Origin: Hydrolagus affinis
Taxonomy: Eukaryota
Length of the DNA: 64,000 nucleotides
Assembly (NCBI GenBank): GCA_012026655.1
Contig: JAAILG010000027.1
Location: forward strand, 1-64,000
Direction of reading: 5' to 3'
Part shown: one piece after another, positions 2,856 through 36,600 of the stretch
How the letters are laid out: each line of letters starts with the position of its first letter
Position numbering within the stretch: position 1 is the stretch's first letter
Notes under the pieces: model-generated
Seen by the model: only the letters and a program-made list of their open reading frames with translations
Told to the model about the DNA's origin: nothing
Databases searched by the model: none
Translations under genes and position numbers: made by a program

Positions 2856-2987
2856 ATCAAGCTTCTGTGTGACTATCGCTTCCTGGATAGCGGCAATCAC
2901 GGTGCTGAGATCCAATTTTATATCCCGGTTCTCTGTGCGAAGGTGATCAGCTATTTCCATTGAGGTTTCCCATTTCAATTTCAGTTC
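2856..2987 (-). CDS. Coding exon 3 of an uncharacterised coiled-coil protein gene (ELKLKWETSMEIADHLRTENRDIKLDLSTVIAAIQEAIVTQKLD)
   Basis: Acceptor tcctttatgacag|GAA, donor GAT|gtgggt, 132 nt open, phase 0/0, in frame with the exon at 6110-6259; heptad-like composition. Confidence 0.7.
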
Positions 2988-3749
2988 CTGTCATAAAGGA
3001 GGACTGTATTAGTCAACATTATAATTTATTTTGATATTTAACACTCCAGATGTGTAGACAAATAGCAATTTCCTTAACACCTAAAATTGACAAGAATATA
3101 TGAAGAAATTGTAATTAAAACCTGGTTTCAGATCTAGCAACTTCCTATTCGGTAATTGTCGCTGCATTTACATTTTGGCAATATTCATCAAATGTGTACA
3201 GTAATAACCATAGCGCATCAAACTCATCAATTGTTGCATTATCCTGTTCAGGCAACAACCCATCAACATGCTTAAAAGTATCTGACACCAACAGAATTCA
3301 ATACCACCTACACAGAATTTTTTATAAATTAGAATGGAACGCACCTTTCCAAGTTGGAAGAGCAAAAGATTGGGGACACAAGAATGTACTGTGGGATTCT
3401 TCAGGAGTTTAACCAGGTAAAAATCTCACCACTGAAAGCACTGTGCTGCAAGTATCTTGCTGTTTGTCCAACTATGCCCATACTATAATTTAGGATTTTG
3501 GCTTAGTTAACAGGAGCCGAGTATGAAGATTCCACATACCTCTGTTCGCCTAGCAGTAAGTAGGAACCCAGTTGTTAGTCGATTGACAGATCACTTTTTC
3601 AGGGATAATAATTCCTTCAAATAAATAATTAATAATTTGGTCACTCCATCTACGGCTGTTCGTGGGACACTGAGATGCACAACTGTCTGCTGCATTTCAC
3701 CCACAAAATATACAGTCAATTCACTTTACGGAGTATCCTGTGACATACT

Positions 3750-4370
3750 TCGGGACGACTCAAATACGTTACATCCCAAGGTGCTGAATAGTCGAGGATC
3801 AGGACAAGTGTGGGGGGGGGACAGGATTAAGATGAGGGAAGGCAGAGAGGTAGGAGGGCAGCTAAGCGCAGCTCATGGTCGAAAGGGAGAGTTTCCAGTC
3901 ATGCCTTGAAGGTGGCGAGGGAGAAAGGCAAACTGATTGTGGATTGGAGTTACAAAGTGTGGGGGAAGAGAGGCTAAAACCTGGCCACCAGTGGTTCAGC
4001 AGGTGACATGGAGCAAGCTGGAGACAGCTAAATGGAATAAGGCAGGTTGATAGGAGGGTTAGCAGATCAGGGAGTAAGGCCCTGGAGATCCTTGATAGTG
4101 GGGACGATCATTTTGAATTCTATCTCCAGACGGATAGGGAGCCACTGGACCTGAGCGAGGATGGCAGGAATGAAGTCACGGAGCCTGATAGAGGAGAGGA
4201 CACAGGCTGCAGAGTTCTGGGTGATCTGCAGCTTATGGAGAGAAGAGTTGAGGAAGTCGACAAGGAGGGAGTTTCCGTAGTCGAGCCTTGAATGCACATA
4301 TGAGGGTTTCAGTGGCCTAAGGGGTGAGGCACTGACAGAGTTGAAGAATGTTGCGGAGTATATAAAACAA
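3750..4370 (-). mobile_element. L2 LINE 3' fragment
   Basis: SRLDYGNSLL...KLQITQNSAA...WLPIRLEIEFK, the conserved L2 ORF2 C-terminal motif. Confidence 0.9.
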
Positions 4371-4734
4371 AGTTCTCCATTTTTAAAAATAAATGCTTAA
4401 GAAAATAAAAGTGGTCATTATATTGTATTGGCACACTGACATTCTAAATAACAGAAAAAAGGCTCCAAAATATTTGTGTTGTGCTTCTGATTCCTGAAGA
4501 CTTGATTCACAAATAATTTATAACCCAGCCAAAACACTACAAACTATGTTACATTAATTCACTCAATAAATTAAGTATTTATCAAATATTTATATCTACT
4601 TTCTCTAACTGCATTGACTAAGACATGTAACTGAGAATACAAGCTTGTGTAGTTGTCCTAGGAAGTAAAGGGACCGCCTCAACATGTTTCATACCCCATG
4701 GAAGATGTCAGTCTTAGCTCAACACCTAAAATGA

Positions 4735-4830
4735 AAGGATTAGTTGAGGTATGGATCAGCCATGATCTATTTAAATGGCAGAACAGGCTTGAAGAGCTGA
4801 ATGGCCTACTACTGCTCCTATGTTCCATCA
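4735..4830 (+). mobile_element. CR1-type LINE/SINE 3' tail
   Basis: GATCAGCCATGATCT...AATGGCAGAACAGGCTTGAAG-GCTGAATGGCCTACT-CTGCTCCTATGTTC resembles the shark CR1/HER1-type 3' end. Confidence 0.7.
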
Positions 4831-5337
4831 GTATGACTAGCTGCTTTGTTAAAAACTTGATGTTCTACTTCACTTGGTTTTCTTGGAAAGTTCCTCTTCT
4901 TTCCTTCTGTTAAAATGAAATGAATTTTTAGCTGCCATGTAGTTTTAAAGATGCATTTGGAACATTTGTGTTTTTCACTTCATACATTTAAAATGAACTG
5001 ATCGCTGGTAAAATATCAGCTTCTACACCCTTAAAACAGCAAAAGTCACATTTTGTAGTCTTCTTTGATAGATCTATTAACTTGAAATATCAAGTGTTCA
5101 ATACACTTTCTCACAGTTGTACATAACATTAATAAACTCTTCTTAGTTCAACAACAACAACAACTTAAACTTATAAAGCGCCTTTCACATCAGGAGGACG
5201 TCCCAAGGCGCTGGTTCAAATGTACATTACAATTTTCTAATGAACCAGAATGCAGGATACAGTTCTTTACATAAAAACAAAAAGTGTCATGAAAGTTTGA
5301 TTTGAGAATGCCAAGTCATTTATTCACATATACACAG

Positions 5338-6066
5338 AGTAGAAGCCCGTTTATCCATGATTCGATGCACCGACACTTCCGTATAACCGGCACACCAAAA
5401 AAAAAGTTCCCATTCGATAAACTGGAACTTATCCGGAACAATAGCAGTGGAGCATTTGTAAATGCATAAATAACAACATAATAACAGAATATTGTATTGG
5501 TACTTATTGTTAAAACTACTCTCTTGCGCTTTTTACCTTTACTAGTAGATGCTATGCTTGAAGCCATGATGCTGCGGTTGAGGTTTATAGTCCAGCGATT
5601 CTTTTTAAAATGGAGCACGCCAAGCAGGGTGAAAAAAATGGAGCGCGTATGACTATAAAGTCATACTAGTGGCAAGCCGATAATCCACATTGTCGCACAG
5701 GTGCAGTATTTGGGTTTGCTGCTAGTAGAGTCTAGGGCTTCGGCTTGCAGCTAGTAAAATCGCGCAACTTTAAAACCACGCTGCCATTTTTTTCACTCGC
5801 TTGGCGTCCTCCATTTCAAAAAAGAATCACTGGATTGTAAACCTCAATCAGTAAAGGTAAGAAGCGCAAGAGAGTAGTTTTAACAATAAGTACCAATATA
5901 ATATTCTGTTATTATCTGTTATTACTTAGTCTGGTGTGTATGGTGTATGTTAAAAGAACTGTAATTTTTTTTTAGTGGGTTTTCGGCCGCGGGCCGCCCG
6001 AATATCCGGCAGGCGCTTTGACCGGCATTGGCCAGTTATATAAAATATATAACTGACTCTTTTACT
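5338..6066. mobile_element. Tc1/mariner (Tigger/pogo-like) MITE, long form with a large internal inverted repeat
   Basis: Ends resemble the CAGTAAAAGCC(C/T)GTTTATCC TIR of the copies at 13431-13878; internal arms ~5469-5648 and ~5777-5923 are reverse-complementary. Confidence 0.75.
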
Positions 6067-6109
6067 TTTATAAAAGTATAAAACAAAGCTTCTAATGCAA
6101 AACACTTAC

Positions 6110-6259
6110 ATTTAACATATGGTCAGCTTTCCTCAGTTTGGAATCGAGATTAGCCACCTTCTCATTTGCCTCTCTTTCAAGATCTTCAACAGTTTGTACC
6201 AAGACGTCATTCTGATCACTGAGGTCATCTACATAGGATTGAAAAATCCTTATCTTCAT
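6110..6259 (-). CDS. Coding exon 2 of the uncharacterised coiled-coil gene (MKIRIFQSYVDDLSDQNDVLVQTVEDLEREANEKVANLDSKLRKADHMLN)
   Basis: Strong acceptor tgttacattttgacttttcag|ATG and consensus donor AAT|gtaagt; 150 nt open, phase 0/0; clear coiled-coil heptads. Confidence 0.85.
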
Positions 6260-6349
6260 CTGAAAAGTCAAAATGTAACAGCAAAGCATTAGTCTACTTT
6301 GTTCTGAATCTAAGAATAAACAAATATTTTGCCCTCAGTTAATCCTCTT

Positions 6350-6752
6350 CCATTGCTTTCCGAGTCACAAAGTTGTGGGGCAAACTCCCTTCGGACTTGG
6401 AACGCATGTCGTCTAAGTTGACACTCCAATACAATACTGGATTGCTGTATGCTGCATTGTTGGAAGTGCTACCCTTCAGGTGAGACATTAAACTGAGGGC
6501 CTGTCTGCTGTTCAGCTGGATGTTAAAGATCTGACTATTTAAAAACAGGGAGTTTCTGCCGGTGTCCTGACTAACAAACATCCGAATAAAATTGATCAGT
6601 TACTTCATAGATGTTTGCGGGACATTGTTATGCGCAAATTGGCTGCTGTGTTCATGCACAGACACAATAACTCCACTTTACACTATATCCTGCAAAACAC
6701 TTTGAGATATCCTTCTGACATGGAAGGAGCAATACCAATAAGAATTATTATT
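6350..6752 (+). mobile_element. Deu-domain SINE (SacSINE1/AmnSINE1-like superfamily), degenerate
   Basis: Deu-like core TGCTGCATTGTTGGAAGTGC...TGAGACATTAAACTGAGG...GGATGTTAAAGATC...GGTGTCCTG, followed by the same L2-type tail as the major SINE. Confidence 0.7.
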
Positions 6753-7059
6753 ACTGTAATTTTTTCATTCACCGAATAGGCCAGAACTACTGAACATTAG
6801 GTTGCTTGGGACGTCCTCCTGAAGTGAAAGGTGGTAAATAAGTATAATTTTTTTGTTATTGTTTTTGTTATGCGTACGGTGTATTTCAATGGTCTAATTA
6901 GTAAGCAAAGAAAACAATTGTATTTTCTAGGCATGTGTGTAAGCACTTTTTCTGCAACAGTGTTCTGGCTTTAAGTGTTGCTTATATATATCAAATGATG
7001 TCTTACTATCGCCAAAATAGAAAATCTTTCCCTAGCGTGCAGCAACTTTCCTCCACAAA

Positions 7060-7360
7060 TATTCGACCAACATCTGCCTTCAGCGTAGGATAATACAGGA
7101 CACCTTGAGATGCTCTAAAGGGCCAGGTCCAATGCATGTATGTACAGGCTTTCGCAACACCAGCTGCTTGAGGATCTTCAGCAAACAGACATGCACATCA
7201 TGAAGATAATTCCACCTCCAGGGTGCTTGGGAACAGATTAGTCCTCCTCTTCCCTGCACCCAGTTCAACTCATCGCTTGGCTCAAATATGTCAAAAAAAA
7301 ACAATCTCCTGTTCTGTATGCCCAAAACTTCAGGATAGCAGAGATGGAGGAAATGAGCAA
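7060..7360 (-). mobile_element. Possible Tx1/L1-clade LINE fragment
   Basis: Minus-strand translation has a ...GRGGL... segment and leucine-rich helix reminiscent of Tx1 ORF2 downstream of RT; heavily decayed. Confidence 0.3.
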
Positions 7361-7995
7361 GAATCAGGCAGGAATGCTATTGTTGATAATAATACTAATA
7401 ATCCTTGCATTTGATATAGCACTTTTCATATCTTATTGACGTCCTCAAAGCACTTCACAGAATATACTGTAAAGTGAATTGACTGTATTTGTTATTACAG
7501 TACAACAATAATATTGATATTACAACAATAACAACTTCTAAACAACAATAATGGTTTGATTCACCTGTATTTACATGTCCTGTTTCCTAACTGAATAAGT
7601 TTCCCTAAGTTGTAGTTTGGAGTCCTACCTAAGAACTGATGTCTTCTTTATTTATAAAAATCCTTATGGAAATTCATGCAATTCATATAGTGCTTTTTAC
7701 ATCAGAACAATGCCTCAAAATGCTTCTCAGTAAAGTGTAATGACTTGTTTGTGATGCAGATCTGACTGTACAGAGTCTTGGGATTCGATAAATGTAACTT
7801 TGTTGTTGTTTTCATTTAGTCATGAAAGGAGCCATACAAATGTAATTTGTTGTATTCTTGTGGGAAATTGTTGGGCCAGGACATGGAAAGAAGAAACTGC
7901 TTTCTCTGTGTGGTCATGACAGTTCTAAAGTGTTTTCACCACCCACCGCCATTGCCACTTGCACTTTGCCATTTAAGAAAGTACAAGACAACAAC

Positions 7996-8100
7996 TTCTG
8001 ACAAAGGATTATGGACCCGAAACGTTGACTCACTTTTCCTTTCTCTGTTGATGCTGCCTGACCTGCTGAGTGTTCCCAGCTATTTATGTTTTTATTGCAC
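7996..8100 (+). mobile_element. Penelope-type short repeat with a degenerate hammerhead-like core
   Basis: CTGACAAAGGATTATGGACCCGAAACGTTGACTC...GATGCTGCCTGACCTGCTGAGT; same family as 29299, 48826 and 56340. Confidence 0.65.
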
Positions 8101-8104
8101 TTAT

Positions 8105-9000
8105 ATAGTGAGGCGAAGGGACTGCGGGATGGAGTTCCAGAGTGTGGGGGCAGAGAGGCTGAAAGCTCGGCAACCAATGGTAGGGTGGGGGATATGGAGA
8201 AGCCCAGAGCCCGCTGAACGGAGGAGGCGGGCTGATTGGTAGAGAATCAGCAGGTCATAGAGATAGTAAGGGGCAAGCCCGTGGATGGCCTTGAAAGTGA
8301 GGACCAGGATCTTGAATTCGATCCTCTGGGGGATGGGGAGCCAATGGAACCAGGCGAGGGTGGGAATGATGTAGTCGCGGAGATTAGTGCAGGAGAGGGC
8401 ACGAGCTGCAGAATTTTGGATGATCTGCAGCTTGTGAAGGGAAGAGCCATGAAGGCTGACGAGGAGGGAGTTTCCATAATCAAGCCTTGACGTGACGAAT
8501 GCGTGGACGAGGGTTTTGGCGGCCTGAAGGGTGAGGCACTGGCAGAGTATGGCAATGGCACGGAGGCGGTAGAAGGCAGTGCAGGTCACGGTATGAATTG
8601 AACAACCTCGAATTGTTAAGTTGAGGATGCGAGGGACATGTCGGTGGCCAGTGCCAGTCGAGAGGATGCGCTGGGCGATGGAGAGAGAGAGGCAGAGGTA
8701 GGGAGGTGCCAGGGAGTGAAAGGATTTGAACACAAGTGTGAGGATCTTAAAGTCAATGCGTTTGGTGATGGGGAGCCATTGCAGCCTGGCCAGAACTGGT
8801 GAGATGTGGTTATGGAGTTTGGACCGGGTCAGGGACAAAACAATGCACAAGGGTTTTGGCTGCATGTGTACGGTGGAAGGCGGCAGAAGACGGCCAGAGA
8901 CCAGATATGGGGGAGGTTGAACCAGAAGCCCAGATTGGCACTGGTTCGGTGCGTGTGAGGGGGGAGAGCCCAAGGGAAGTTGAGGAGTTCCGCTCCATTG
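8105..9000 (-). mobile_element. Two adjacent or rearranged L2 LINE fragments (explains ORF 8101-8973)
   Basis: Motif HI(S/I)P-LA-L-WLPI--RI(D/E)FKIL-L-FK occurs twice; SRLDYGNSLL and QNSAAR present. Confidence 0.9.
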
Positions 9001-9178
9001 GAGTGAAGAGTTGACGGTGCAAAGAATGCATTTTACAATAGTTTTTATTCACTTTGCCCGCACGCACCCACTCCCTCCCCCACCCCCCCTCCCAAAAAAG
9101 TGGCAAACATTTTACCAAATATCATTGTTGTTATGTGATTAACAAACCCGGACTGATGCCTTCTCCGGATTTACTTAC

Positions 9179-9415
9179 CCTCAACCCATTACTATTCTCA
9201 TCTCTAAACTCGGTGTGTTTCAGCTTCTCCTCATACAAGTCCTTGAACTCCCTGAGAAGGCGCTTCATGTTGTGCCTGACTGATGGCGAGGTCGGTGAAG
9301 AGCATCTCTTGTCTCCCGCTCCCAGCAGCTCTACCTCCCGCCTCAAGCCACCGAGGGCCGGGATTCCGGACCTGGACGGACAAATGGACCCAAGGTCCAC
9401 CTCTCCGCGCTCCAT
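9179..9415 (-). CDS. First coding exon of the uncharacterised coiled-coil gene (MERGEV...MKRLLREFKDLYEEKLKHTEFRDENSNGLR)
   Basis: ATG at 9415 (alternative in-frame ATG at 9268), consensus donor AGG|gtaagt at 9179/9178, phase 0 matching the exon at 6110-6259; lies at the edge of a CpG island. Start codon choice uncertain. Confidence 0.75.
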
Positions 9416-10260
9416 TTTTAACCAGGGCTTTATTAAAGATAAAAGCCGCTTCAGTGATTAGCGAACAAGGCGTCCTCCCATTATGTGAGAGGCGGTGGCG
9501 CTGCCCTTCCCTCCTCCCGCTCGCTCGCCCTGGAGACGGGAGTTTAACGGAACTTTCAAACCCAACAGACAAACTGCACTCGCACCCAGCCCCGCCCCCC
9601 TCCCGCCGAACCCGCAACGCCATTGGTGGACGGCGCGGCACAGGCGGGTCCATCTCACCAGCTCGCTCGCTGACTGGCTGGACGGTGTGTCACTCAACAA
9701 ATGCGTCACACGGCCCCACCCCTCCCTCCCCCTCTCTCTTCGACACGAGTAATAAACAAAACAAAAAAAAGGAACCAACTGCCGGCCGGAGTCGGCTGTC
9801 AGTGAAGGTCATCAACAGGTAGGGAGGTGCGGCAATTAATGGCTGAGTGCTGAAGCTATTCGTCTCTCTAATACATACACACACCAGGCCAGGGTCACGT
9901 GAAACGGAAGAAGACGCTTGGCCGTTGTCAAGTGACGTTCCAGGCGTCGGGGGGGCAGATGAAGAGCGTGTCCTAGGCCCAGGCCTCGGGCTGACCTGGA
10001 GAGAGCTGCAGCCGCCCCGCAGAGGTACCTTCCTCCCCTGTCCCCGTACCCGGCGAGTCTCTGGCGAGTTACCCGGTGCCCACTCTGGCTTCCCTCCCCC
10101 ACCCACCAACATATCGATTCACTTTGCAGTGCAGACCCAAGCTGGCCCTCTCGAAAGCGCGTTGAGACGTCCCGGAGATGCGATCGGGCGCTATTTATTC
10201 ATTGTTATTGATTAATCATTATTATTATATATTATTATTTCCCTCCCGTGGCCTCCCGCT
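9180..10260. promoter_or_regulatory. CpG island / probable bidirectional promoter for PEX2 (+) and the coiled-coil gene (-)
   Basis: Only strongly GC- and CpG-rich non-repeat segment in the window. GC box CCCGCCCC ~9592, inverted CCAAT 9622-9626, E-box GTCACGTG 9894-9901, ETS CGGAAG 9905-9910, CRE half-site TGACG 9933-9937. Confidence 0.8.
9900..10024 (+). other. PEX2: Candidate non-coding first exon of PEX2
   Basis: Inside the CpG island and ending at GAG|gtacct (GT at 10025). A second + donor, CAG|gtaggg, is at 9819. Vertebrate PEX2 has non-coding 5' exons. Boundaries inferred, not proven. Confidence 0.4.
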
Positions 10261-11659
10261 ACAGTTTCAAACCTAAAAGTCCCAGCACTTCGACCATGCC
10301 TTCCTTTGGTCGCCTTCCTTCCTTCCGCCATCTCCCCCCCCCCCCCCTGCAGACATACAGTACATTATTGCTGTACATTCATGTTTATTATATTACACGA
10401 TGTATTACATTCAGTGCATGTAAAATGCCAATGTTGATTCCGGCATCTACCGGATCGTTCTAACCCAAGCCCACTCTTCTCTCGCGATAATGCAGAGTAA
10501 ATATCCCGTCCCATGCTTGAACGTGTTTTCTAATAATCACCCTTGCATTTGAAGTAACATCAACAACTTGCATTTATACAGTGCCTTTTACCCAGGGGAG
10601 CACTTTAACAGTGGCGGAGCCTGACGCCAAGCTTGGGGAGTGAATAGATGACCACAGTAACAATAATGATCCTTGCATTTGATATGCACAGGTATTTGAA
10701 AGGTGCAGCATCTTTCAAGTCTGTAAAGTGTGGTGACTGTATTGCTGGTGTGCCAGCCAATTTGCACATAGCAATGACCTACAAATAACTAAAAAGTGAA
10801 TGATCAATTTTATTTGAGGGATTCCCACAACTAAGGTTTAATGCCTTGTCGTAATATTATAGCTGGGATAGCAATTAGATATAGAATAAACTGAACAATC
10901 ATTTTTTGGTACCATTCCAACAAGTCAGTTATTTTAAGTTTATCATTTCCTTTTTCTGATGCAAAGTATTCTCTCTTCCAGCTATTTCCTAAATTCCTAA
11001 TTTCATAATCTTATTTTGCACTTCTACGGATCCCATAAATTTAAGTTCTGTTTCAATTTATGAATACATAAATGCTTCCCAAACTTGTTGGACTGATTAA
11101 AGTATGGGAAAATGTAATAAACAAATAACACATCATTAGGTTTCTGATATATATATATGCGCTTAAGGAAAGTTTTCCCTCCATATTAATTAACATCAAT
11201 ATCTTTATATTTTCTGGAACCATGCCTCCTAAAAACTGCTCATCACCACCTAAATTCCTACCTAACTTTTTGTTGGTGTCTGATGCATGCGGAAACCCAT
11301 CACTGTATTAAAATCAGAGTTCCATGTATCCCACCTGTAGAAATTCCAAAGGTTTTGTTGGAATGGAATGCGCACTGTCTCCCTGGAGAGTCGCATCCTG
11401 TTTATCTAATTATCCAATTAGTGTAGGTTGGCAAGAGACAAGGCTTGGGGACCCCAGTGTATCTTGGCATATTCCTGGAGCCTAACAAGCTCAAATGCGT
11501 ATCCTACCACTACCCGGCAAGCTTTCCTACTGCTTGTCCAGCTAGGACCATCCAAAAGAAATCTTAAAGAAAAGCATACTTGGAATAATGCTTCCAAAAA
11601 CAACAAAATTACATTTATAGAGCGCCTTTCACATCGGGAGGACGTCCCAAAGCATCTCC

Positions 11660-18600: not shown

Positions 18601-19564
18601 ACATTACTATTGATAGGTTTCTGTCAATAATATGTTCCCAAATAAAATGTATTAATTCATAATTTGTAAACTACTCAATAACTGCATTGACAAAAAAATA
18701 CCAAGGGAAGTTCCTACTCCCACAGTGATCTAGCATTATAATTTGTCTTCGTTCCAAAATACTGTATATATTTTTAATGCATTACTAGCAGCAATTGTAG
18801 TTGATACAGCAAACTGAAGTATAAAGGATCATGAAAACTACACAAAGTTCTGCAGTAAGGTTTTGCTTCAATTATTGGGCAGACTCGTCCTAGTTCTGTT
18901 TTCACTTTTGTACCTGAATGCTAAAAACAAGAGAAAATATTTTTCTGTTCATGACAAATAAAAATCTTAAATATTAGGTTTAATAATTTACAGGTATTAA
19001 CCTACTCTAGTGAGGTTTTGAAGACCCACATTACATGGAACGTAATGTTACAGTGAATACAAATTAGCACACATTTTGGAAATCAAACCCTCAATCTCTG
19101 CTCACAATTATAATCACAGACAATGTTCAGCAAGTGACTTTTTCTATTCTCTTGGTATGAAAAGAATGGTTCAGTGGGTTGCTACACTGTACTTCTGAGG
19201 AGGATTAAAACTACAGAGGGTTACTGTTGCATATTACGTCTTTGAAACACAGCAACACAGATTTTTACAGTGAATTGTAGTGATTCCTCAGCAGGCCTAA
19301 CTGACTCCCAGCAGATTCATTTCAAAGTCCTCAGTATTGCCCATCAATCACTTTGTGCCGTAGCACCTCCCTGTCTCTGATCTTCTCCTACCCGACTGAT
19401 TGGATTTGGCTGTGATACCCAGCCTCACTTTACTGATGCTTTTCCACCCTACACCATTTAATAATAATAATAATAATAATCCTTGCATGTGACATAGCGC
19501 TTTTCACATTTTCTAGACGTCTCAAAGCACTTCACAGAATGTAATGTAAAGTGAATTGACTATA

Positions 19565-20469
19565 CAGGTATCCCTCCCCAACCGCGGGGGATACATTCCT
19601 GTAAACCTTCGTGGTTGGAAAAATCGCAGTTGGAAAATGAAGGGCCCTATGGGAAACACGGGGATACGGGGAGTAAATTCATTTTTTTGCGATTGGGAAA
19701 TGCAGAGCCCTATGCGAAACATGGGGATACGGGGAGTAAAACTAAACACAAAAAACACATACAGATATAACATAGGGGATAGGGGGAGTAAGTTTGAGCG
19801 CATTGGTTGCCAAGATCTGCAGCTCCGCTACAGAGAGAGAGACACGGGGGGCTGGGAGGTAGGGGAGTGACACTGAGGGCTGGGGGTGGGGGGGGGTGAC
19901 ACGGAGGGCTGGGGATGACACGGAGGGCTGGGGGGGGTGGGGTGGTGACACGGAGGGCTGGAGGGGGGTAACACGGAGGGCTGGGAGGACTGGAGGAGGT
20001 GAGAGAGAAGTGGGTGTGGGGTGGGGGAAAAGAGAACTTACAGATAAAGAGATCTGCAGATCCTGGCAGCCAATGCTCCCAAACTTACTAGCTAGGCTGC
20101 GGAGAAGCGACAATAAATTCATGTTACTGTATTTACCTTAATCTTAATAGAGAAGCGATGTCGCTGGTTGCAACATCACAAACTGGGTCCTAGTGCTATA
20201 CGCTAGCTGTTCGCACACACACAGTACCTGTAGATCCACGAGTGCAGCTAGACCATGTGGGGTAGTAAAGATGCTGATAGGTGGGAAATGCGGAGTGGAT
20301 GAATACACACCATTACGCGGATGAATGCAGTCCCTTGTTTGGAGGAGTGAAACTTGAAAATTTAAATCGCGGACGAGCAAAACGCGGTTTGCAAGGGTTG
20401 TCGCATTTAGCAAACCATGGATGCGTGAGTTTCATAGTTGGCAAGGCCGCAATTGGGGCAGGATACCTG
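19565..20469. mobile_element. Tc1/mariner-superfamily (Tigger-like) non-autonomous DNA transposon, ~905 bp
   Basis: TIRs CAGGTATCCCTCCCCAACCGCGG / CCGCAATTGGGGCAGGATACCTG, TA duplication at 19563-19564 and 20470-20471, no transposase ORF. Confidence 0.85.
19845..20030 (+). repeat. G-rich minisatellite (unit ~TGACACGGAGGGCTGG+Gn) inside the MITE
   Basis: About 5-6 copies of GACACGGAGGGCTGG separated by G-runs. Confidence 0.9.
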
Positions 20470-21012: not shown

Positions 21013-21918
21013 ATGGATTCGAAACAAGATGACTCAACCTCCCTCCCTCCAGTACTGAGAATAAGTCAACTGGATGCTTTTGAGCTGGATAGAGCATTGG
21101 AACAGCTAATGTGGTCCAAGTTTGCCAGGTGCTTTCAGTGTTTCAAACCTGGTTTGTTAACGCGCTATGAACCAGAGCTGAAAGGCTCTCTGCAGCTTCT
21201 GTTATGGAGATTTACAGTCTTTTCCCAAAATGCAACAGTTGGTCAGGCACTTTTAAATATCAGATACAAAAATGACTTATCTCGAGGACAAAAGTACAAG
21301 CCGATGAGTAAACATCAGAAGTTATGGTATGCGCTATGCACTGTCGGGGGAAAATGGCTGGAAGAGAGACTTCATGACTTATTCAGCAATCGTTCTCCAG
21401 AGTCAGCTATTCACAAGATGAAATATTTCATTACTTTCATAGTTGGATTTTTGAAAGTGGCCGGACTGCTGAATTTTCTCATCTTTCTGCAGAAGGGTAG
21501 GTTTGCCACATTTCCAGAACGACTCCTGGGGATTAGAGCAGTTTTCTCCAGACCTCAGGGTGCACGTCAAGTTGGTTTTGAATACATGAATCGAGAACTG
21601 TTGTGGCACGGTTTTGCTGAGTTTCTGATATTTCTCTTGCCACTTGTAAACACAAGGAAATTGAAAACCACAATCTCTTCCTGGTTTCTTCCAGTACATG
21701 ATCGCCGAGAAAATGATGGCACTCTTGCGAGACACTGCAAAGAATGTACCCTTTGTGGGGAATGGCCAACTATGCCTCACACTATTGGCTGTAGACATGT
21801 GTTTTGTTATTACTGTATTAAAAGCAACTCTCTGTCTGATGCTTACTTCACCTGCCCAAAATGCAGCAGTGAAGTCCATAATGTGTTACCTTTGAAACAT
21901 GAAGTTCAGACTAATTAA
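21013..21918 (+). CDS. PEX2: Peroxisome biogenesis factor 2 (peroxin-2, RING E3 ligase), 301 aa, single coding exon
   Basis: Pex2/Pex12 N-terminal motif [13 protein letters not shown]; [24 protein letters not shown]; C3HC4 RING (CTLC...CRH.FCYYC...CPKC). Acceptor ttttttag|G at 21004/21005, 8 nt before the ATG. Convergent with ZFHX4 as in other vertebrates. Confidence 0.98.
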
Positions 21919-35976: not shown

Positions 35977-36600
35977 ACAACAACAAACAACAACAATAAC
36001 AACAACTTTGATTTATATAGCGCCCTCCACGCCGAACGGCATCTCAGAGCGCTTCACAATAGCGGATCCCGGAACCGAGCCAGGAGTAGGGGTAGAAAGG
36101 TGACCGAAGGCGCGGTCGAAAAGAAAGGTCTTTAACTGTGACCTGAAACTGTGAAGAGAGGGGGCAAGGCAAAGGGAGTGAGGTAGAAAGTTCCAGAGTC
36201 TTGGGGTATAGTGGCTGAAGGCATAGGCACCGAGGGTGGAGCAGAGGATTCGGGGGACATGGAGGAGGCCAGACCCTGTGGAGCGAAGGCAGCGGATGCT
36301 GGTTGGGGAGAAAGGAGATCAGAGAGGTAGGGGGGTGCAGAGGAATGGAGGGCCTTGAAAACAAGGGTAAGGATCTTGAAATCGATTTTCTCAGGGACAG
36401 GGAGCCAGTGAAGTCTGGCAAGGACTGGGGTAATGGGGAGTAAAGCTTGGTGCGGGTGAGTATGCGGGCGGCAGAGTTTTGAATTAGCTGGATTTTGTGG
36501 ATTGTAGTGGCGGGGAGACCGGTGAGGAGGGCGTTGCAGTAGTCTAGCTGAGAGGTGACAAAGGCATGGACCAAGGTTTCAGCGGCTTTTGGGGCACTGT
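35977..36600 (-). mobile_element. Relatively young L2 LINE 3' fragment (second L2 subfamily)
   Basis: AETLVHAFVTSQLDYCNALLTGLP...IQNSAARILT; tail GAGATGCCGTTCGGCGTGGAGGGCGCTATATAAATCAAAG(TTG)n. Confidence 0.92.

Follow-up and report, generated by a model that had tools for sequence, protein, structure and literature searches.

PMFBP1 (STAP) is described as a testis-specific protein needed for the linkage of sperm head and tail, and variants in PMFBP1 and SUN5 are reported to account for about 70% of human cases of acephalic spermatozoa (PMC12539209). Residues 750–1023 of mouse and human PMFBP1 are reported to bind CENTLEIN directly (PMC8363609). A 2025 review states that PMFBP1 counterparts in other species are unidentified and that this limits genetic work (PMC12539209), and PMFBP1 has been cited as conserved within tetrapods; the top silkworm match of a mammalian PMFBP1 profile, Bombyx mori BmPMFBP1, is reported as required for eupyrene sperm, and its authors favoured convergence (PMC8970482). 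Here we describe a gene in positions 1–64,000 (forward strand) of contig JAAILG010000027.1 from Hydrolagus affinis (assembly GCA_012026655.1), a 64,000-nucleotide stretch referred to below as the window. Three exons on the minus strand are the 5′ end of this gene, which comparison of its predicted protein with its relatives identifies with high confidence as a paralogue of PMFBP1.

The coding part of exon 1 (9179–9415, 237 nucleotides) runs from a start ATG at 9415 to a GT donor; exon 2 (6110–6259; 150 nucleotides, 50 codons, phase 0/0) encodes the core of an N-terminal motif and the start of the predicted dimeric coiled coil, and exon 3 (2856–2987; 132 nucleotides, 44 codons, phase 0/0) encodes the end of the first long helix. 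All three lengths are multiples of three, and the spliced frame comprises 173 codons without a stop. GT donors follow all three exons and AG acceptors stand after pyrimidine tracts at exons 2 and 3. Of the three GT donors, the one following exon 3 (2850–2855) is the weakest. An initial annotation, made from the letters alone, had proposed three phase-0 exons in one open 173-residue frame, and the frame, its homology and the transcription described below bear this out; it had also placed GT-AG sites on every exon, which holds for the donors and for exons 2 and 3 but not for exon 1, where no AG is found at 9415; the start ATG lies there instead, as the first methionine codon downstream of an in-frame stop (frame 9131–9457). 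The spliced 173 residues align without gaps to residues 1–173 of Callorhinchus milii XP_007909050.1 with 147/173 identities (85%), and to Scyliorhinus XP_038665581.1 (1,694 residues) with 93 identities in 160. Exon 2 is skipped exactly (50 residues) in two elasmobranch isoform models, and exon 2 used as the sole query retrieved two relatives among 41 candidates, from Callorhinchus and Scyliorhinus. The gap-free Callorhinchus match and the exact skipping of exon 2 thus argue that the exons are not due to chance. A Pfam search of the three exons gave only sub-threshold matches. No fourth exon was found in positions 1–2855, where the best match has an expectation value (E) of 0.039 and lies off the expected position; the gene therefore extends to the left beyond the window, as had been proposed.

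Transcription of the gene is shown by RNA depth and strand, exon by exon, in a close relative. The read data comprise one contig set and two RNA runs of the same study (X2 and X3), three of the four listed, at 85% likeness; the two RNA runs derive from a single sample, a single-cell library for which no tissue is stated, and its source organism is closely related but not identical. In run X3 the depth is 27–31 over exon 3 (at 2871–2906), 14–21 over exon 2 and 7–10 over exon 1 (9208, 9384), and reads extend into the 5′ untranslated region (6 at 9458, 4 at 9501 and 1 at 9538), giving this region of exon 1, which contains the in-frame stop upstream of the ATG, a minimum extent of 9416–9538 on the minus strand. 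The first mate lies on the plus strand at all three exons in X3, which in most stranded libraries corresponds to minus-strand RNA, and the repeat-free intron bins 4369–4635 and 7039–7305 have zero depth in the same run. Run X2 has the same pattern at a depth of 0–4.

The relatives of the gene are long coiled-coil proteins of about 1,200–2,000 residues bearing automated names (interaptin-like, golgin-like, PMFBP1-like). A shark N-terminal query retrieved 36 relatives among 5,179 candidates, from sharks, rays, gars, basal teleosts, clupeids, salmonids, characins and two molluscs and, weakly, a PMFBP1-named protein of a ray; this ray protein, used as query in turn, retrieved 21 relatives among 8,000 scored candidates, which include frog proteins and proteins named pmfbp1 from ray, shark, zebrafish and gecko. 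A six-sequence profile gave 496 matches in 1.84 billion representatives, with 142 new ones among the 150 listed; 20 of the 142 were looked up, and 15 of these carry a species name. Outside vertebrates, relatives are found in the molluscs Biomphalaria, Arion and Ostrea, the annelid Capitella and the priapulid Priapulus. The 173 residues match shark and ray pmfbp1 at E about 1e-16, and the two shark copies, designated A and B after the clades described next, match each other at E 3e-160; myosin and tropomyosin reach only 20–34 bits against the family profile, and a profile search of the PDB returned only background of the myosin/tropomyosin type. In a feature search of the ESM Atlas with the C-terminal part of the shark protein, taken as a lead only, the top two matches are PMFBP1 clusters. 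Another cluster that resembles this part has 120 members and the name ‘GOGB1 protein (Fragment)’ (1,383 residues); it may be the avian version of one or the other paralogue. CCDC77, fantom and MIPOL1, matched in the same way by the N-terminal part, were set aside as generic coiled-coil clusters that sequence searches did not support.

A full-length IQ-TREE tree of 28 chosen proteins, rooted with molluscs and from which the 173-residue row was dropped for low coverage, separates clade A (support 100/100), containing Callorhinchus, sharks, rays, gar, teleosts and frogs, from clade B (98/99), containing the named PMFBP1 of shark, rays, zebrafish, gecko, turtle, echidna, rodent and lemur; FastTree runs agree with this split. 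When the window sequence is included in a tree of the N-terminal region, it comes out as the sister of Callorhinchus (100/99) within clade A (98/93). Both copies are present on different contigs in Hemitrygon (225 and 92 Mb), Chiloscyllium punctatum (146 and 85 Mb) and Caretta (263 and 44 Mb). The homology between the clades is collinear and exceeds the coiled-coil background, and the proteins are predicted to be mostly coiled coil without a catalytic domain, as expected for the PMFBP1 family in the broad sense; clade A does not group with mammalian PMFBP1 in the trees. The initial annotation had held that no family could be assigned, a view that the trees and the collinear homology overturn. 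Clade A includes a Xenopus laevis protein named PMFBP1 and an alligator gar (Atractosteus) protein named PMFBP, so that the names in use hide the paralogy.

Alignment and profile comparisons show three conserved blocks retained in clade A, of which the subterminal block and the C-terminal motif were read in clade A homologues, beyond the 173 residues of the window. The N-terminal motif, encoded by exons 1 and 2, has 15 positions conserved in at least 90% over 23 sequences of both clades and molluscs, and the window sequence keeps all of its residues. It is common to shark, ray and turtle PMFBP1; its profile matched two of three turtle PMFBP1 proteins and none of the four named mammalian ones. 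The start of Sigmodon PMFBP1 aligns to position 636 of the turtle and 798 of the shark PMFBP1, an offset that points to N-terminal shortening in mammals. Residues 750–1022 of Sigmodon PMFBP1 match all seven clade A proteins compared (E 6e-20 to 6e-9) and Capitella (E 6e-16). The C-terminal motif is complete in eight of ten clade A proteins and partial in one, and is present in two of five outgroup proteins and in none of nine clade B proteins. By these comparisons clade A is the more ancestral-like copy. Two mollusc relatives have the N-terminal motif and a much longer coiled coil before the middle conserved block.

The AlphaFold2 model of the Callorhinchus homologue, with a mean predicted local distance difference test score (pLDDT) of 73.9 and a predicted template modelling score of 0.31, has residues 1–45 disordered, a helix at 46–71 (the first helix of the N-terminal motif) and a long helix at 76–169. 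A homodimer model of residues 44–180 reached a score of 0.52, the best control reaching 0.01, with contacts agreeing to 97% and pLDDT of at least 77; in it the two chains run parallel and in register as a coiled coil whose core contains the invariant Leu92 and Leu99. Residues 76–169 are accordingly predicted to pair in register with a second copy as a parallel dimer. In calibration, 21 of 30 microbial homodimers reached the mark against 0 of 23 monomers, and among eukaryotes 17 of 29 homodimers against 0 of 30 monomers (7 of 16 for animal homodimers, and 1 of 7 for eukaryotic ones without an older solved relative). Given the small calibration and the single success among these seven, the pass may reflect likeness to known coiled coils, and the model supports dimerisation without proving it.

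The best explanation of these data as a whole, to which we assign a probability of about 0.6, is that the gene is an ohnologue of the PMFBP1 family whose product is a coiled-coil dimer serving as a scaffold between centriole and nucleus in spermatids. The gene would be a second vertebrate member of the family that arose when the ZFHX3/ZFHX4 block was duplicated. Its full-length product, presumably near 1,700 residues as in sharks, would dimerise as a long parallel coiled coil and, as a rod no longer than about 250 nm, connect the centriole of the spermatid with the nucleus in the way PMFBP1 does. The subterminal block, whose homologue is part of the CENTLEIN-binding end of mammalian PMFBP1, would dock on the centriole, and the N- and C-terminal motifs, which lack a counterpart in mammalian PMFBP1, would bind further partners; mammals would be left with a shortened clade B copy alone. 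By analogy with PMFBP1, a role of clade A in the sperm neck is somewhat probable.

Several observations weigh against this explanation. The sperm role of clade A is an analogy, the RNA comes from one sample of unstated tissue, and a CpG-island promoter likely shared with the housekeeping gene PEX2 fits broad expression better than expression in testis only. Only 173 residues lie in the window, the C-terminus being known from homologues, and the Callorhinchus model has just 518 residues. Identity to mammalian PMFBP1 is low (23–34%) and lies within coiled coil; clade B is not one group in two short-region trees (the N-terminal and a second short region), and clade A has a support of only 80/62 in a mid-region tree. 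The N-terminal motif is also absent from all six clade A models of frogs and, in clade B, from those of Danio, Euleptes and Pangshura, so that some absences may be annotation gaps. The paralogy of the blocks depends on published work and on a tentative ZFHX4 label in the window, and a lamprey protein is unplaced in the trees, so that the duplication is not datable against cyclostomes.

The chief alternative is a reading in which the same PMFBP1 paralogue is a general scaffold of centrioles or basal bodies in somatic or multiciliated cells, clade B having taken on the sperm-specific task. It is compatible with the transcripts seen in the single-cell library, whose tissue is unstated, with a promoter likely common with PEX2 and with the retention by clade A of ancestral motifs that clade B has lost, and CENTLEIN is reported to be a somatic centrosome protein as well (PMC12539209, PMC8363609). 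However, the sole family member described functionally is testis-specific in the account cited (PMC12539209), and the decay of clade A in amniotes, which are ciliated, is more easily explained by redundancy with clade B. A general somatic scaffold is thus considered possible but unlikely, and the spermatid scaffold is preferred.

The remaining alternatives are far less probable. That the chimaera gene is truncated or decaying, so that the long rod is no longer made, might be read from the Callorhinchus model, which ends after 518 residues in unrelated-looking sequence, and from the differences to run X1 among the exon differences listed, five of which change a residue and three of which are synonymous; these eight differences are too few to be informative, however, and decay is made quite improbable by transcription, by a frame that stays open with its splice sites and motif residues intact, and by the identity of 85% between two sequences of holocephalan type. 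A tether of membranes resembling golgins, EEA1 or interaptin is suggested by automated database names and by the ESM Atlas cluster named after GOGB1, but clear orthologues bear such names in no consistent pattern, a Pfam search of two homologues gave no family at its cut-off, those that would mark a golgin, EEA1 or interaptin included, and the homology with PMFBP1 is collinear; this identity is therefore very improbable. Slightly less probable still is an orthologue of human PMFBP1 that has moved beside PEX2. Some clade A proteins do bear the name PMFBP1 (Xenopus laevis, Atractosteus), but mammalian PMFBP1 groups with the other shark copy (Sigmodon PMFBP1 scores 254 bits against shark B and 96–116 bits against shark A) and three species possess both copies.

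The neighbouring genes bear on the origin of the two clades. The coding exon of PEX2 (21013–21918, plus strand) matches Pfam Pex2_Pex12 (E 3.4e-40) together with a RING domain, with Peroxin-2 as best PDB match (E 5.1e-29). A CpG island at 9001–10500 is the sole run of CpG-rich, GC-rich 500-nucleotide windows in positions 1–22000, apart from one such window at 8251, and is therefore likely to be a divergent promoter common to the gene and PEX2. We infer that the first exon of PEX2, for which RNA support is thin, lies within this island (about 9.0–10.5 kb). Of the head-to-head arrangement initially annotated, the identity of PEX2 is confirmed and the orientation is likely. An open frame at 52278–53906 (minus strand) appears to be the terminal exon of a zinc-finger gene; Pfam and further identification searches of this frame gave no name, and we take it to be ZFHX4-like from its C-terminus and from the adjacency of PEX2 and ZFHX4 in human. 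Human PMFBP1 presumably lies downstream of ZFHX3 on the same strand, and the gene described here has the same arrangement relative to the ZFHX4-like exon. Linkage to ZFHX3, as expected for a clade B orthologue, was not found; the gene is linked to PEX2 and to the exon we take as ZFHX4. In published accounts, human ZFHX4 adjoins PEX2 and ZFHX3 is the paralogue of ZFHX4 (PMC11326360, PMC2211742), and PMFBP1 adjoins ZFHX3 in human (PMC6065313) and chicken (PMC12193209). The full-length tree supports a duplication before the gnathostome split, and the A/B split probably derives from whole-genome duplication. The one supplement file of an ohnologue paper contains no match to the pair, which its online database may list (PMC13450315).

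The initial annotation had further supposed an ancient gene kept in this lineage and lost in mammals. The gene does predate the split of cartilaginous and bony fishes and has protostome relatives, but its retention is not limited to this lineage, as sharks, rays, gar, teleosts and frogs also carry clade A. All four named mammalian matches (Sigmodon, Microcebus, Tachyglossus and Sminthopsis) belong to clade B; 46 of 108 further matches are A-type by best BLAST score, and since only three of these 46 carry a species name, loss of the clade A copy in mammals is likely, not proven. Pieces from two turtles (240 and 378 residues) and from the snowy owl (225 residues) group with bony-vertebrate clade A (93/91), and a coelacanth piece is also placed in clade A. 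The turtle and owl pieces may be decaying sauropsid copies or partial models. At least 15 short A-type pieces, those with names being from turtles and owl, span the same one or two exons and carry substitutions where other sequences are conserved. Exclusive retention of clade A in frogs was ruled out; an Ascaphus fragment groups with clade B (96/92), and there was thus no simple swap of copies in frogs.

Other features of the window are repeats and gaps. Related open frames at 8101–9048 (minus strand), 4067–4396, 36044–36676, 47696–48091 and 58464–59159 resemble long interspersed nuclear elements and have very high read depth; we take 8101–9048 and its kin to be remnants of such elements, presumably of L2/CR1 type. 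The copy in intron 1 (8101–9048) seems to contain an internal duplication. Tandem and low-complexity repeats occupy 19522–20137, about 1 kb upstream of the PEX2 coding exon, and assembly gaps (runs of N) lie at 49711–49897 and 52599–52746, the second inside the ZFHX4-like frame without shifting it.

The gene is already in databases as automated models, several labelled PMFBP1-like, and it is, as judged by homology, an undescribed paralogue within a known family: a literature search found no paper describing a PMFBP1 paralogue, with the limits that LOC-numbered supplement entries are possible and that most subscription journals fall outside its coverage. The locus reveals a second vertebrate copy of the PMFBP1 family and protostome relatives, with the conserved blocks defined, and the name PMFBP1 has been given to some proteins (Xenopus laevis, alligator gar) that are in fact the other paralogue. 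Tentatively, and with less confidence than for the spermatid scaffold, PMFBP1 may be the shortened survivor of a bilaterian centriole-to-nucleus scaffold and no tetrapod invention, its PEX2-linked ohnologue having retained both ancestral motifs, at head and tail, coupling sperm head and tail in fishes and frogs and decaying in amniotes as the mammalian-type neck evolved. If this is true, frogs, fishes, molluscs and annelids would be the missing non-mammalian models for head-tail coupling.

Compared with known systems, clade A has the same collinear coiled-coil homology as PMFBP1, the scaffold in the SUN5-CENTLEIN-PMFBP1 linkage, and shares with it the subterminal block, which lies within the region matching the CENTLEIN-binding residues 750–1023; both genes also lie beside a ZFHX gene, presuming the ZFHX4 name. 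Clade A differs from PMFBP1 as a separate clade with a PEX2-side locus, in about 630–800 more N-terminal residues than rodent PMFBP1, and in a C-terminal motif common with the annelid and absent from the nine clade B proteins. The automated models Callorhinchus XP_007909050.1 (‘interaptin-like’), Scyliorhinus XP_038665581.1 (‘golgin subfamily B member 1-like’), Heterodontus (‘PMFBP1-like’) and Xenopus laevis (‘PMFBP1’) are clade A orthologues with inconsistent names, none of which marks a distinct paralogue. For BmPMFBP1, the mollusc, annelid and priapulid relatives reopen the question of homology versus convergence.

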